From assembly GCF_021246445.1 (NCBI RefSeq), contig NZ_JAJQXW010000001.1, positions 1,258,168 to 1,322,167 on the forward strand: a stretch of DNA of 64,000 nucleotides, given 5' to 3'. Under the pieces are notes generated by a model. It saw only the letters and a list, made by a program, of their open reading frames with translations, did no database searches and was not told the origin of the DNA. Numbering within the stretch: position 1 is the first letter of the stretch; each line of letters starts with the position of its first letter. Origin of the DNA: Rhabdothermincola salaria. Its GTDB lineage: Bacteria; Actinomycetota; Acidimicrobiia; Acidimicrobiales; Acidimicrobilacustridaceae. The translations under genes and the position numbers were made by a program. Shown here piece by piece: positions 58,918 through 62,830 of the stretch.

Positions 58918-59691
58918 TCAGCTCGACCGGTCGGCCGAGCTGAGGGCCCGCTGACGGTTCAGCCAGCCGAGCAGGACGGCCACCGCACGGGGATCGTGGC
59001 GCAGCTGGTGCCCACCGCCGTCGATGATGCGCAGGTCGGCGTCGCCGTGGGCGTCGGCCAGGACCCGGGCGTCGAACACGGGCACCACGTCGTCGTCCGA
59101 GCCGTGCAACAGCAGCACCGATCGAGGTGCCACCTTCGGGATGGCCGCCACGGCCCGCACGTCGCGGATCTCACGGGCCCAGGCGTCGAACGCCGGCGGG
59201 TAGGCCGCCGAACGGATGATGCCGGTGTCGCGCGCGTGCTGCAGGAGCCGGCGTGGGTGGCTGGCCCAGTCGTCGAAGTCGGCGGGTGCCCCCACCGCCG
59301 CCACTCCTCGGATCTCGGGATCGGCCGCGGCGGCGCAGACGCTGAGGGCCCCACCCGTGCCGAACCCGGCTGCCCACACGCCCCGCACGGCGTCGACCTC
59401 GCGCAGGAAGCGGGCTGCCGCCAACAGGTCGTCGAGCCATCCCCGCAACGAGAAGTCGCCGCCGGAGTCGCCGCAGCCACGGAAGGTGAAGGTGAGCACC
59501 ACCCACCCCATCTCGGTGGCGATGCGCTCCGCCAGCTCCGGGAAAGACCGCGCCGAGAGCCGCCCGCCCTGGTTCATGTGGGGGAACCCGTGGGTGATCA
59601 ACAGCCCCGGCACCTGCGTCCCCGCCGCGATGCTGGGCCGGGCCAGGTGCCCGGCGATCCCGATGCCCCCCGAGGTGAACAGCTGCTCCAT
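58918..59691 (-). CDS. alpha/beta-hydrolase fold protein (nucleophile elbow GFGTG)
   Basis: HGFP, FRGCGDSGG, GFGTGG, LHGSDDDVVP, GGGH. Confidence 0.8.
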   Translation of the reverse strand: MEQLFTSGGIGIAGHLARPSIAAGTQVPGLLITHGFPHMNQGGRLSARSFPELAERIATEMGWVVLTFTFRGCGDSGGDFSLRGWLDDLLAAARFLREVDAVRGVWAAGFGTGGALSVCAAAADPEIRGVAAVGAPADFDDWASHPRRLLQHARDTGIIRSAAYPPAFDAWAREIRDVRAVAAIPKVAPRSVLLLHGSDDDVVPVFDARVLADAHGDADLRIIDGGGHQLRHDPRAVAVLLGWLNRQRALSSADRSS

Positions 59692-59704
59692 GACTATGGG
59701 CGAC

Positions 59705-59837
59705 GCGGAGCGCCGCCGGTGCGAGACGGGTCGCTGGCGCTCCCGACGTCTCGCCACCCCCCACCCCGACACGAACCCACCCCGGAACGCGGAGCGCCGC
59801 CGATGCGAGACCGGCCGCTGGCGCTCCCGACGTCTCG
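59705..59837. repeat. two near-identical 49-bp structured direct repeats (59705-59753, 59789-59837), variant of the 49174 repeat
   Basis: GCGGAGCGCCGCCGRTGCGAGACSGGYCGCTGGCGCTCCCGACGTCTCG twice, 35-bp C-rich spacer. Confidence 0.9.
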
Positions 59838-59848
59838 GCCGATGCGGG

Positions 59849-60067
59849 TCACTCGGCGACGCCGGCGCCCGAGCCGTCGCCCTTGTAGGGCTTGTAGCCG
59901 CGGTTGCGGGCCTCGGCCAGGGTGTCGGGGCCGAAGCCGATGAACGTCTCGGCCGCCATGAGCTCGGCGATGATCTCGGGCTCGGTGAGGTTGTCGACGT
60001 CGTAGACCACCTGGGTGCGCTTGTCGCCCACCCATCGGTGCTCGGCGTACTTCCCGGGACGTTCCAT
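59849..60067 (-). CDS. small hypothetical protein (72 aa)
   Basis: GGAGG SD, GC3-rich codons, own -10-like TACGAT at 60100-60105. Confidence 0.75.
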   Translation of the reverse strand: MERPGKYAEHRWVGDKRTQVVYDVDNLTEPEIIAELMAAETFIGFGPDTLAEARNRGYKPYKGDGSGAGVAE

Positions 60068-60117
60068 TGGTCGTGCGCACCTCCGCTGCAGGGAGCCTCA
60101 TCGTAGGGCGGGCGCGA

Positions 60118-60147
60118 ACAGGGGAGGGCACGAAGGCCCTCCCCTGT
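60118..60147 (-). terminator. 12-bp perfect hairpin, probable intrinsic terminator
   Basis: ACAGGGGAGGGC / GCCCTCCCCTGT arms, 6-nt loop reading CUUCGU on the minus strand; only a short U tail. Confidence 0.65.
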
Positions 60148-60262
60148 CACTGAGTAAGTGGAATGAGACCGGTGGGACGTTGGCTACCGGGCGGGACGAG
60201 CTCCCGGCCGTCGTCACCGGCGGTGGCTGGGTGGGATTCACCAGCCGGCCCAGCTCGCCGCG

Positions 60263-60307
60263 CTAGCGACCAGCCACCTCCGAGGTCCCACAACAACCGT
60301 CGTTCAT
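60263..60307 (-). CDS. candidate 14-aa small ORF MNDGCCGTSEVAGR
   Basis: ATG..TAG preceded by GAAAGGAGGTGGTCCA; absent from ORF track. Confidence 0.45.
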   Translation of the reverse strand: MNDGCCGTSEVAGR

Positions 60308-60384
60308 CTGGTGGACCACCTCCTTTCCTCGGTCCGAGCAGTGTGCCAGCTCTGCCCCGCCGAGTGCACGCGCCTTTCGGCTCC

Positions 60385-60401
60385 GTTCACACGCCGTTCG
60401 C
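60385..60401 (-). promoter_or_regulatory. 11-bp-periodic repeat GTTCAC-n5-GTTCGC (plus-strand reading), candidate OmpR-family box
   Basis: offset from a -10-like hexamer (CACACT, 60340-60345) within 1 bp of that of the 45186 box. Confidence 0.4.
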
Positions 60402-60406
60402 AGGGC

Positions 60407-60859
60407 TCAGGAGCTCGCCGAGGGATCCGGCGGCTCGGGAACCTGACCGCCGATGGCGCCGATGGCCTCGAGGTACTCACCCGAGGCGTCGAGGACCCGC
60501 ACCACCCACACGTCGTCGAGCTCGAGACCGCCTTCGGCCGCCTTGCCGAGCACGTAGGCCAGCCCCTCGTCCTCGGCGGCGACCAGCGGACCGCTGGTGT
60601 CGTTCTCACCGAAGTCGCGGGCCACGCCCCGATCCTCGAGGTAGTCGAGGTGCCACAGCAGCAGCGCCCGCACGTCGTCGTAGGTCAGCTCGGCGGTCAT
60701 CTCCTCGGGGAGGCGGTCGGCCACGAACTCCACCGCCTCCTCGAGGTCGTACACCGACGTGGGCGGCTCGTCCTCGAGGCGGTAGGTGAGGCGCCCGATG
60801 GTGACCAGGGCGATGACCAGCACCGCCACCACGGTGAGCACGACGAAGACGATGAGCAC
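60407..60859 (-). CDS. hypothetical protein with N-terminal membrane anchor
   Basis: hydrophobic N-terminus, acidic soluble domain, TAGTCT hexamer 6 nt before GTG. Confidence 0.75.
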   Translation of the reverse strand: MLIVFVVLTVVAVLVIALVTIGRLTYRLEDEPPTSVYDLEEAVEFVADRLPEEMTAELTYDDVRALLLWHLDYLEDRGVARDFGENDTSGPLVAAEDEGLAYVLGKAAEGGLELDDVWVVRVLDASGEYLEAIGAIGGQVPEPPDPSASS

Positions 60860-60885
60860 GACACGAGACTACGGAGAAAACGGCG

Positions 60886-60915
60886 GAGGCCCGCACCGGC
60901 GACGGTGCGGGCCTC
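60886..60915 (-). terminator. intrinsic terminator downstream of acyl-CoA dehydrogenase
   Basis: 13-bp stem GAGGCCCGCACCG/CGGTGCGGGCCTC, 4-nt loop, followed on the minus strand by CGCCGTTTTCT. Confidence 0.7.
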
Positions 60916-60951
60916 GCGGTCGTGGTCGGCCCCGAGGGCCCGACGACCGGC

Positions 60952-62067
60952 TCAGATGCCGATGCGCTGGGCGAGGAGCTCGCGGTGGTAGGTGGGGTCG
61001 CCGAAGAGCAGTTCGGAGCTCTTGGCCCGCTTGAAGTACAGGTGGGCCGGGTGCTCCCAGGTGAAGCCGATGCCGCCGTGGATCTGGATGTTCTCGGAGG
61101 CGGCGTGGAAGTAGGCCTCCGAGCAGTAGGCCTTGGCCAGGGAGGCGACCGACGGCAGCTCGTCGTTCATCTCCGAGGCGCACCAGCCGGCGTAGTAGGC
61201 GGCCGACTTGGCCGACTCGACCTCGAGGAGCATGTCGGCGCACTTGTGCTTGATGGCCTGGAACGAGCCGATGGGCCGGCCGAACTGCACGCGCACCTTG
61301 GCGTACTCGACGGCCATGTCGAGGCACATCTGGGCGCCGCCGACCTGCTCGGCAGCGAGGCCGACCGCGGCGAGGTCGAGGACGGTGGACAGGGTGTCCC
61401 AGCCGGCGCCGTCGGTGCCGAGGAGGGTGGCCTCGACGCCGTCGAAGTCGAGCTTGGCCTGCTTGCGGGTCTGGTCCATGGTGGACAGCGCCGTGCGGGT
61501 GAGCCCAGCGGCGTCGCCGGGGACGTGGAAGAGGCTCACACCGGCGGCGGTGCGGGCGGCCACCACGATCAGGTCGGCCACGTGGCCGTCGAGGACGTAG
61601 CTCTTGGTGCCGCTGATCTTCCAGGTGCCGCCGTCGTCGGTGGCGGTGGCCTCGATGCCGGACTCGTCCCAGCGACCGTTGGGCTCGGTGAAGGCGAGGG
61701 TGGCGATGGTCTCGCCCGAGGCGATGCCCGGCAGCAGGGCGGCCTTGGCGTCGTCGTCACCGGCCTGCAGGATCGTGTTGGCGGCGAGCACCACCGTGGA
61801 GAAGTACGGGGCGCACAGCAGCGAGCGGCCCATCTCCTCGAGCACGACGATGAGCTCGACGTAGCCGAAGCCCTGGCCGCCGAACTCCTCGGGGATGGTG
61901 AGGCTCTGCAGGCCGAGCTGCTCGGCCATCTGGCTCCACACCGTGGGGTCGTAGCCCCGCTCGGTCTCCATCTGCTCGCGCACGGTGGCCTCGGAGGACT
62001 TGGCCTCCAGGAACTGACGGACGATGTTGCGGAGCTCTTCCTGCTCCTCGGAAAAGGCGAAGTTCAT
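60952..62067 (-). CDS. acyl-CoA dehydrogenase
   Basis: IPEEFGG.G, YAKVRVQFGRPIGSFQAIKH, QIHGGIGFTWE. Confidence 0.94.
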   Translation of the reverse strand: MNFAFSEEQEELRNIVRQFLEAKSSEATVREQMETERGYDPTVWSQMAEQLGLQSLTIPEEFGGQGFGYVELIVVLEEMGRSLLCAPYFSTVVLAANTILQAGDDDAKAALLPGIASGETIATLAFTEPNGRWDESGIEATATDDGGTWKISGTKSYVLDGHVADLIVVAARTAAGVSLFHVPGDAAGLTRTALSTMDQTRKQAKLDFDGVEATLLGTDGAGWDTLSTVLDLAAVGLAAEQVGGAQMCLDMAVEYAKVRVQFGRPIGSFQAIKHKCADMLLEVESAKSAAYYAGWCASEMNDELPSVASLAKAYCSEAYFHAASENIQIHGGIGFTWEHPAHLYFKRAKSSELLFGDPTYHRELLAQRIGI

Positions 62068-62146: not shown

Positions 62147-62413
62147 GTGCAGATCGGCGTGCGAGAGCTCCGGGCCAACCTCGCCGGCCTCGTGCGACGG
62201 GCCCAGGCGGGCGAGGCCATCGTGGTGACCGTCTCGGGTCGACCGGCGGCGGTGCTCGGACCTGTCGGCGGCGGCCACGAGGTCGGGCTCGACGACCTCG
62301 TGGCCATGGGCGCGGTGCGGGCACCGCGGGCCCGCACGGGGCGGCCGGACGTGGCCCGCACTCCCCTGCCGGTCGACACCCGGTCCGACATCGAGCTGCG
62401 CAAGGTCCGCTGA
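62147..62413 (+). CDS. vapB: Phd/YefM-family antitoxin (VapB)
   Basis: IGVRELRANL..LVRRA.AGE.IVVT..GRPAA.L.P. Confidence 0.88.
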   Translation: MQIGVRELRANLAGLVRRAQAGEAIVVTVSGRPAAVLGPVGGGHEVGLDDLVAMGAVRAPRARTGRPDVARTPLPVDTRSDIELRKVR

Positions 62414-62416
62414 ACC

Positions 62417-62830
62417 GTGGCGCTGGCCATCGACTCGAGCGCCCTGGTGAAGCGCTACGTGGACGAACCGGAGAGCGCCGCGGTCACCGCGCTGATGGAC
62501 GCCGAGGCCCAGTGGTTCGCCTCGGACCTCGTGCGGTGCGAGACCACGATCCTGCTGGCCCGTCTGGCCACGAGCGCTCGCCAAGCCGAAGACCTCACCG
62601 CCCGTTTCTACGCCGACTGGGACGCCTTCCACGTGGTGCCCGTCGACGAACGCTGCCTCTCACGCGCCGCCGAGATCGGCGCCGACTTCGGCCTGCGGGT
62701 GGTCGACGCCATCCACCTGGCCGCCGCCACCCGGCTCCCCCGCCCCGTGCGCCTCTTGACCCTCGACCCTCGCCAGGTGCTGGCGGCGGTGGCCCTCGAC
62801 CTCGAACCGGTACCCACGCCCGAGGACTGA
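62417..62830 (+). CDS. vapC: PIN-domain toxin (VapC)
   Basis: IDSSALVK, RCE, DAIHLAAA, TLD acidic PIN residues; directly follows antitoxin. Confidence 0.9.
   Translation: MALAIDSSALVKRYVDEPESAAVTALMDAEAQWFASDLVRCETTILLARLATSARQAEDLTARFYADWDAFHVVPVDERCLSRAAEIGADFGLRVVDAIHLAAATRLPRPVRLLTLDPRQVLAAVALDLEPVPTPED

Follow-up and report, generated by a model that had tools for sequence, protein, structure and literature searches.

The stretch of Rhabdothermincola salaria DNA analyzed here (64,000 nucleotides, hereafter the window) contains on its minus strand a gene for a small RNA (sRNA) of the Ms_IGR-5 family (RF02471, 'Actinobacteria sRNA'), situated in the order acyl-CoA dehydrogenase, membrane-anchored 150-aa open reading frame (ORF), RNA, 72-aa ORF and alpha/beta hydrolase. 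The 5' module of this RNA carries a complement of the 3' tail of 16S rRNA, i.e. an extended Shine-Dalgarno (SD) sequence termed SD1, which is followed by a short open reading frame (sORF) whose 3' half runs through the helices P1, P_A, P2 and P3 (Table 1). An earlier note on this DNA had pointed to a 16-nt complement of 16S rRNA before a 14-aa ORF, and missed both the curated family and the fact that the stretch is part of a structured RNA of ∼170-215 nt.

Table 1. Features of the Ms_IGR-5 locus and its surroundings, in window coordinates.
Feature	Position	Strand	Basis or remark
Small RNA body, RF02471 match; predicted 5' end A60333	60162..60333	-	45.9 bits, E=1e-08, model positions 1-184 of 184
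P_A 5' strand (CCGA; extendable by GG)	60329..60332	-	columns 5-8 with 55-58, alignment A2
SD1, 17-nt complement of 16S rRNA 3' tail (GGAAAGGAGGUGGUCCA)	60312..60328	-	own 16S, genome scan, 79 loci, duplex energy
sORF, ATG + 13 codons + TAG (MNDGCCGTSEVAGR)	60263..60307	-	start, frame, length and stop conserved in 79/79 loci
P1 3' arm GGACC (codons 7-8), pairs with GGUCC 60317-60313	60284..60288	-	near-invariant
P_A 3' strand (UCGG), inside sORF, abutting SD2	60280..60283	-	P_A pairing test
SD2, second SD-like copy GGAGGUGGCUGG within sORF; its GAGGUG ends 9 nt before the stop	60270..60281	-	GAGGTG invariant in 79/79 loci
P3 hairpin enclosing the stop codon	60238..60269	-	79.4% paired; 7/12 pairs changed on both sides
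Internal anti-SD-like strand CCAGCCACC, P2 3' strand	60222..60230	-	9-nt perfect complement of SD2; reached by 2/100 shuffles
3' domain with P5, P5b and P4; P4 loop carries GUCCC (60197-60193)	60169..60220	-	alignment A1
-35-like hexamer GTGCAC, preceded by an A-rich stretch	60364..60369	-	by eye; putative
-10-like hexamer CACACT (TGG just upstream), 18-nt spacer to -35	60340..60345	-	by eye; putative
G/C-rich 12-bp hairpin (ACAGGGGAGGGC ... GCCCUCCCCUGU), no U-tract	60118..60146	-	predicted (minimum free energy); ∼50 nt before the 72-aa ORF
72-aa ORF	59849-60067	-	co-oriented, downstream of the RNA
150-aa ORF, N-terminal hydrophobic segment, acidic rest	60407-60859	-	flanks the RNA

An Rfam scan of positions 59500-61200 returned one significant match, to RF02471, which is full length and untruncated, with the 5' AC..GGAAGGAGGUGGUCC motif aligned at posterior '*'. 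The score meets the gathering score of the family (45 bits) and was the same in whole-genome searches, in which this intergenic locus was the one significant copy in the genome (second match, E=0.41). Ms_IGR-5 was first identified in Mycobacterium smegmatis through co-purification with Hfq. At E<=0.01 the model matched 25 of 41 relatives (the window's genome counted), 42 of 151 genomes drawn from the class and 50 of 151 drawn from the phylum, with 20 of the phylum matches above the cut-off and a best score of 185.6 bits; four of these 50 are unpublished genomes, without which the count is 46 of 147 and whose loci were not used. None of the 14 control genomes matched at E<=0.01. The comparative results below refer to 79 loci (individual loci are cited by L numbers), of which 52 come from the relatives and the class sample, the window's own included, and 27 from the phylum sample after two unpublished-genome loci were dropped; matches without a locus, 12 of the class sample and 21 of the phylum sample, lie outside the 79. 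The RF02471 consensus itself begins ...GGAAGGAgGugGuCc, which makes the long SD-like stretch a trait of the family; the consensus reads in frame UUG ... GAG GUG GCU GCC CGC UAG, and the corresponding frame of L055 (185.6 bits) reads TTG AGT GAC TTA TGG ACA TGT GAG GTG GCT GCC CGC TAG. The locus belongs to this known family, and nothing sets the window apart from it.

When the threshold of the search was relaxed to E<=1, weak matches appeared in the controls Caulobacter vibrioides and Thermus thermophilus. The former might correspond to a locus resembling the alpha-proteobacterial rre genes, analogues of which are reported in four orders, Caulobacterales among them (Hahn et al., RNA Biol 2017, PMC5711450).

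Positions 60312-60327 of the plus strand read TGGACCACCTCCTTTC, one base below the end coordinate implied by the earlier note, and the minus-strand RNA accordingly carries, in order, GAAAGGAGGUGGUCCA, CCAG, the ATG (60307-60305) and, at 60265-60263, the TAG. In this genome the 16S gene terminates in ...GGCTGGATCACCTCCTTTCT. Against this tail the complement proposed earlier (15 of 16 Watson-Crick pairs and one G-U pair) was recovered, and the pairing runs one base further: all 17 positions of minus-strand 60328-60312 are paired, 15 as Watson-Crick and two as G-U pairs, the 17th pair being G60328 opposite the terminal U of 16S. The tail is identical in the window's genome and four others (a 16S gene was found in four of five genomes queried). 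When in-register pairing to the 17-nt tail was scanned over both strands of the genome (3,908,307 bases, GC 71.8%), SD1 was the sole 17-nt run besides the antisense strand of the 16S gene, followed by two runs of 15 nt, three of 14 nt and 18 of 13 nt. A match of this length is far beyond what chance would produce, and the earlier observation is confirmed. The duplex of SD1 with 16S has a predicted energy of -29.4 kcal/mol, compared with -8.7 kcal/mol for the GGAGG core alone, and the predicted cost of opening SD1 within the full RNA is 7.5 kcal/mol. Elsewhere in the genome, outside the window, complements over 15 positions with 11 Watson-Crick pairs each lie at C2:601956-601972 (-) and C1:1402425-1402441 (-).

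Among the 79 loci, all 17 positions pair with the 16S tail in 69, the longest run is 16 in nine and it is 9 in one (L064). Nearly all substitutions within SD1 retain this pairing: the bases opposite rRNA U are A or G only (SD1 positions 3, 4, 5 and 13, 79/79 each), those opposite the two rRNA G are C or U (78+1 and 77+2), and GAUCC replaces GGUCC in five loci, which yields a perfect complement at that position. At this wobble position G (74 loci) is favoured over A (5 loci), which fits a second constraint, since G also pairs with C in P1 or in internal GGACCACC strands. Changes in SD1 thus preserve pairing while the intramolecular helices described below covary freely, the pattern expected of an invariant external RNA partner. 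As judged from this comparison of loci, SD1 is kept under selection for pairing with the entire single-stranded 3' tail of 16S rRNA.

The 14-aa ORF described in the earlier note has its ATG at 60307, 4 nt past SD1. Across the loci the start lies 1-7 nt past the complement and 5-12 nt past GGAGG; the predicted leader of the window, which contains the SD, is 26 nt long. In every locus the frame is free of internal stops and ends exactly three codons past the invariant GAGGUG, with lengths of 14 (37 loci), 13 (29), 12 (10) or 15 codons (3). The start codons are ATG (28), TTG (23), CTG (18), GTG (7), ATT, ATC and ATA (1 each), i.e. other than ATG in 51 of the 79, and the stop codons are TAG (47), TGA (24) and TAA (8). 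TGG in place of the stop was found in 0/79, though the second and third bases of the stop are paired in P3 and covary with their partners (TAG<->TGA). The stretch from SD1 to the second GGAGG varies between 25 and 32 nt and falls into all three mod-3 classes. Despite this change in loop length the start codon keeps the frame, since in-frame codons exceed those of the other frames in both sets of unique sequences that were counted. In the first set, at positions 10-17 after GGAGG, ATG/GTG/TTG occurred in the frame of the conserved stop in 40 of 51 sequences versus 0 and 4 in the other frames, or in 51 versus 4 and 4 when the near-cognates CTG, ATT, ATC and ATA were included; in the second, with a wider span (positions 9-20) and 74 sequences, the counts were 57 versus 21 and 4, or 74 versus 38 and 8 with near-cognates. 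The comparison shows that an ORF of 12-15 codons with a correctly placed, often weak start (UUG, CUG, GUG or AUU/AUC/AUA) and a fixed stop is under selection.

We think that it is the act of translation to this fixed stop that is selected, rather than the sequence of the peptide, because the amino acids that are conserved (T-x-E-V) fall on nucleotides under constraint from the RNA. The opposite view, that the locus acts through the 12-15-aa peptide (core ...[R/G/W]-T-x-E-V-x-x-x) and that the RNA is simply an mRNA for it with an unusually strong ribosome-binding site, appears unlikely. It would account for the conservation of frame, start and stop in all 79 loci, for some synonymous differences among close relatives (GAC/GAT in L003 versus L007, CAT/CAC in L012 versus L041) and for N-terminal motifs confined to certain clades (M-[NS]-D and L-H-K-P, for instance). 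However, the residues conserved across the phylum, [R/G/W]-T-x-E-V, are all encoded by nucleotides that either lie in helices or do not vary even at the third position of the codon (GAG GUG, 79/79); the codon before GAG switches freely with the covariation of P_A (Ser, Leu, Pro, Cys, Arg, Glu); the three C-terminal residues are variable; and ∼100 nt of conserved, covarying structure follow the stop. Furthermore, the RreB and RreR peptides are described as unstructured and without phenotype (PMC5711450). The variable codons of the sORF are AT-rich (41% GC, versus 72% GC for the genome of the window).

The earlier suggestion of a highly translated Cys-Cys peptide was not supported. Cys-Cys occurs in 9 of the 79 loci, the four same-genus relatives read MNDGRCGT... 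(Arg-Cys), and non-ATG starts predominate as given above; in rreB, a non-ATG start together with the extended SD is reported to lower translation (PMC5711450). As a separate observation, seven loci (L063, L065, L067, L068, L073, L076 and L081) share the codons CAT AAA CCG (His-Lys-Pro) at positions 2-4 after TTG or CTG, the only part of the peptide that seems to be conserved without an obvious reason in RNA structure.

The fold of the RNA was characterized with two alignments: A2, which covers the 5' module in 79 sequences and in which P_A and P1 were tested, and A1, which covers 29 loci of the window's order after L026, L029, L030 and L033, whose 3' halves differ, had been left out by eye beforehand. 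In P_A, the four bases 5' of SD1 pair with the four bases 5' of GAGGUG in 95.7% of cells (A2). Three of the four pairs changed on both sides, with AU, GC, CG and UA variants (pair 7:56 is AU in 33, GC in 20 and CG in 16), none of 500 shuffles reached the observed score and slid controls reached at most 57%. P1 is paired in 100% of cells in A1 and 82.9% in A2, and hardly varies. The 5' 11 nt of SD1 lie in a bulge between these helices, while its 3' GGUCC forms the 5' arm of P1. By the covariation criterion, the SD core (GGAAAGGAGGU) is an 11-nt bulge flanked by P_A and P1, with the start codon in the P1 loop, P1 itself being compatible with this arrangement.

The second SD-like copy GGAGGUGG inside the sORF pairs with an internal anti-SD-like strand: in P2, GGUGGCUGG (60278-60270) pairs with CCAGCCACC (60230-60222) in 96.9% of cells (A1). 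In the 3' domain, P5, P5b and P4 are paired in 81.2%, 68.8% and 92.4% of cells, with 4/6, 4/4 and 6/6 pairs changed on both sides (A1). For the full curated model of 46 pairs (P_A, P1, P2, P3, P5, P5b and P4), 87.9% of cells are paired and 25 of the 46 pairs change on both sides (A1); 0/500 shuffles reached its score, and slid controls reached at most 49.5%. The minus strand is identified as the RNA strand by G-U pairs that many sequences retain, such as the A1 column pair 72:98, which is U-G in 29/29. An alternative or tertiary pairing of the P1 3' arm (xGGAC) with a GUCCy hairpin loop (GUCCC in the window) is considered tentatively: GTCC stands in a predicted hairpin loop in 51 of the 79 loci, and x:y is Watson-Crick in 31 of these 51, with all four pair types, but the pairing fails in 12 of 18 A-type loci.

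Other candidates were set aside. A pairing of columns 54-57 with 122-125 given by RNAalifold was replaced by P_A, which covaries much better, and the first helix of the Rfam model, GGUGGU/GCUGGU, was not adopted, being weak in the window (one non-standard pair). The 6C sRNA was considered as a partner of the two G-rich copies, and RF01066 was not found in the genome at E<=0.01; with a genome completeness of 97.8% and a search that was filtered, this is not proof of absence.

The internal complements bear on a further alternative, namely that the RNA is a purely non-coding base-pairing or protein-binding sRNA in which the SD-like stretches serve intramolecular pairing or another partner and the ORF is incidental. 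Rfam files the family as an sRNA, 21 of the 79 loci are without a canonical start, and in other lineages strands of the GGACCACC type complementary to SD1 extend over at least 7 nt in 42 of the 79 loci (up to GGACCACCUCC in L063), with anti-SD2 strands of at least 8 nt in 15 of the 79. We nevertheless judge this explanation quite improbable. P_A, P4 and P5 covary freely, whereas SD1 does not and its few changes are those tolerated by the invariant 16S tail; the lineage of the window is among those that lack an internal complement of SD1; and the start tracks the frame across loop lengths while TGG never replaces the stop.

The small RNA is probably a stand-alone gene with a promoter of its own, a start near 60333 and an end probably at the hairpin 60146-60118. 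Inspection by eye of the 60-nt stretches that precede the RNA across the 79 loci revealed a recurrent TTG/GTG-type -35 element with a GAAA-rich stretch, and a TANNNT/CANNNT element, often with an upstream TG, that ends 6-8 nt before the conserved 5' AC; the -10-like element of the window was not flagged by a simple sigma-70 scan. The hairpin, the 3' arm of which is anti-SD-like and in which a G-rich stretch recurs in A1, is a probable U-less terminator or 3' end of the small RNA, and could instead be part of the leader of the downstream gene.

Homologues of the 72-aa and 150-aa ORFs are found in 23 of the 79 loci each, all of the window's order, and neither ORF has a match in Pfam or NCBIfam. 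Outside the order the context differs. The hairpin between the RNA and the 72-aa gene, together with the order 150-aa gene, RNA, 72-aa gene and hydrolase in these 23 loci, would suit a cis-acting leader (attenuator) of the co-oriented downstream gene. This function is very unlikely, however, as none of the 50 loci from outside the order retains the linkage, the downstream gene is convergent in some loci, the 72-aa gene of L007 lies ∼1.4 kb away, and the family member of S. avermitilis is reported as an sRNA transcription unit of its own with start and end mapped (PMC8780764). In L055 and L056 (185.6 and 175.9 bits), the RNA lies between an upstream ORF that resembles the class-IV aminotransferase/aminodeoxychorismate-lyase type and a convergent downstream ORF that resembles the nitrobindin/fatty-acid-binding type, both by reading of the translations with no library scan; these flanks may help to place the family on annotated mycobacterial genomes. 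Within the window, a PIN-domain protein is encoded at 62417-62830 (+) (PF01850, E=8e-13), preceded by a small ORF that ends at 62413, overlaps its start by a few bases and has no Pfam match, a layout of the VapBC toxin-antitoxin type.

Control by cysteine, in which a ribosome would stall at Cys-Cys of a regulatory sORF when Cys-tRNA is scarce, draws on the two adjacent TGT codons of the window, on at least one Cys in 38 of the 79 loci and on two distant loci adjoining ORFs that resemble cysteine synthase and cystathionine-type enzymes (by reading of translations, no library scan), but is hardly credible given the rarity of Cys-Cys, the Arg-Cys of the same-genus relatives, the lack of a conserved neighbour in Cys metabolism across the loci and the leader predicted here, mycobacterial poly-Cys sORFs being leaderless.

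With moderate confidence, we interpret the stretch as the 5' module of a stand-alone structured Ms_IGR-5 RNA that would act as a ribosome-docking mini-mRNA, with translation coupled to its fold, and that would be an actinobacterial counterpart of the rre genes. The 30S subunit would dock very tightly on the exposed SD core and melt P1, and the over-long duplex, together with the weak starts of many lineages, would throttle initiation. An elongating ribosome would then have to unzip P_A, P2 and P3 up to the stop 9 nt past GAGGUG, a spacing that could let the anti-SD re-pair at termination. The opening of these helices would free C-rich strands, so that translation and fold would be mutually coupled, and the state of docking or translation would probably set the stability, fold or activity of the RNA, as for rreB. 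The earlier note had spoken of a ribosome-capturing or sequestering RNA. Capture is consistent with the phylum-wide selection for pairing and with the reported co-sedimentation of rreB with 30S subunits (PMC5711450), whereas sequestering is doubtful. A global 'ribosome sponge' role is unlikely because over-expression of rreB is reported to have no effect on growth and the authors argue that ribosomes far outnumber the RNA (PMC5711450).

Several points weigh against the docking and coupling of this mini-mRNA. We infer, in part by analogy, the coupling of translation to fold and any downstream effect. In the 21 loci that start with CTG (18), ATT, ATC or ATA (1 each), the frame may be bound but hardly translated, since a canonical start is missing. 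Constraint on the RNA already preserves the 3' half of the sORF, the frame and stop spacing of which therefore do not count separately in favour of coding. The single-sequence fold of the window is no better than that of shuffles (z = -1.15; 27 of 200 fold as well), and support for the structure is therefore taken from covariation; P1 and most of P2 barely vary, and are thus compatible with the model rather than proven by it. In addition, the slid control of the full model is flattered by the use of the window's own sequence to derive the curated structure, relatedness inflates all of the shuffle tests, and the Rfam score exceeds the cut-off by 0.9 bit only. Ribo-seq reads are reported on Ms_IGR-5 homologues in M. 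abscessus and M. smegmatis, which is weak evidence for translation of the family because two non-coding RNAs, 6C and F6, are covered by reads in that study as well (PMC4974804).

A broader proposal, which is speculative and which we hold to be doubtful, is that Ms_IGR-5 and the alpha-proteobacterial rre genes form a wider, unrecognised class of 'ribosome-docked' mini-mRNAs, each a translation-gated switch that would read free 30S or initiation capacity into its own fold, its stability or trans-acting C-rich strands. In such a switch the 17-nt site would capture 30S through the whole 16S tail, the wobble G would be kept to serve both the 16S U and an internal C, internal mimics of the 16S tail (GGACCACC or CCAGCCACC) would compete for the two SD copies, and the in-ORF copy, fixed 9 nt before the stop, would re-engage the anti-SD of the terminating ribosome.

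What appears to be new for the family, in the literature that could be searched, is the 17-nt 16S complement, the conserved sORF, helix P_A, the SD/anti-SD pairings and the link to the rre genes. Ms_IGR-5 has been validated by RNA-seq in S. lividans (PMC8079986). The passages on Ms_IGR-5 in PMC8079986, PMC8780764 and PMC4974804 mention neither an ORF nor a long SD, a check that excluded the founding paper; the text of PMC5711450 makes no mention of Actinobacteria, Mycobacterium, Streptomyces, Gram-positive bacteria or Rfam; and rreB is unmentioned elsewhere in the literature searched. No match was found in this literature for systematic sRNA names of the mycobacterial locus. The short ORF for the mycobacterial peptide was not found in the supplements of a ribosome-profiling paper on M. 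tuberculosis (PMC9094748), the text of which may be incomplete; a search of these supplements for 'EVAAR' gave four matches, of which the two viewed are long annotated proteins, and DNA strings were not found.

Ms_IGR-5 is among the few sRNA families common to mycobacteria, streptomycetes and many other Actinobacteria, and the 16S complement with its mini-ORF provides this family with a testable hypothesis of 30S docking and translation-coupled folding. Annotations of this 'non-coding' family should mark it as a small mRNA, and the extreme length of the SD offers a usable search key for such genes outside the alpha-proteobacteria.

Dual-function RNAs such as SgrS/SgrT and RNAIII/hld are likewise short structured RNAs with a translated mini-ORF that overlaps regulatory helices. 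The rnTrpL/peTrpL RNA of Sinorhizobium is similar in being a short structured RNA with a translated mini-ORF that overlaps regulatory helices, the trpL frame also having 14 codons (PMC6614838). In contrast to these dual-function and attenuator-derived sRNAs, the present family has no conserved downstream operon or regulatory codon run, and the extreme SD is not theirs. It also differs from leader-peptide attenuators, with a downstream gene kept in 23 of the 79 loci only and convergent in some, and from the poly-Cys leaderless sORFs of mycobacteria, with no conserved Cys run in the loci, a predicted leader that contains an SD, and variable neighbours.

The closest characterized analogues are rreB and rreR, to which the Ms_IGR-5 RNA is compared as working alike and not as a member. 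The two differ in phylum, and the likeness is drawn from the description of the rre genes rather than from a sequence comparison. The 17-nt complement of rreB is perfectly Watson-Crick, whereas that of the window has two G-U pairs, and the last base of the rreB complement is the first base of its GTG start, whereas in the window the ATG follows after 4 nt and GTG serves as the start in 7 of the 79 loci (PMC5711450). The actinobacterial RNA has, in addition, a second SD copy within the ORF whose spacing to the stop is fixed, internal anti-SD-like strands and a larger covarying 3' domain. Binding to 30S, weak translation (ascribed to the long SD and the GTG start) and decay that depends on the start codon, rreB being stabilized when this codon is changed to a stop, are reported for rreB only (PMC5711450). 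In other respects the two agree closely. Both are small stand-alone RNAs (a 165-nt mRNA in rreB of Bradyrhizobiaceae, a predicted ∼170-215 nt here) in which a 16S complement of 16-17 nt precedes an sORF (14 and 18 codons in rreB and rreR, 14 here). In both, the 5' part of the complement is predicted to be single-stranded, which in rreB holds for the 5' nucleotides only, and the 3' part to lie in a conserved hairpin; weak starts are frequent, the peptide is not conserved between clades and genomic context is kept only within a family or order (PMC5711450). In view of this link to the rre genes, ribosome-sensing mini-mRNAs may be either an old class or one that arose repeatedly.

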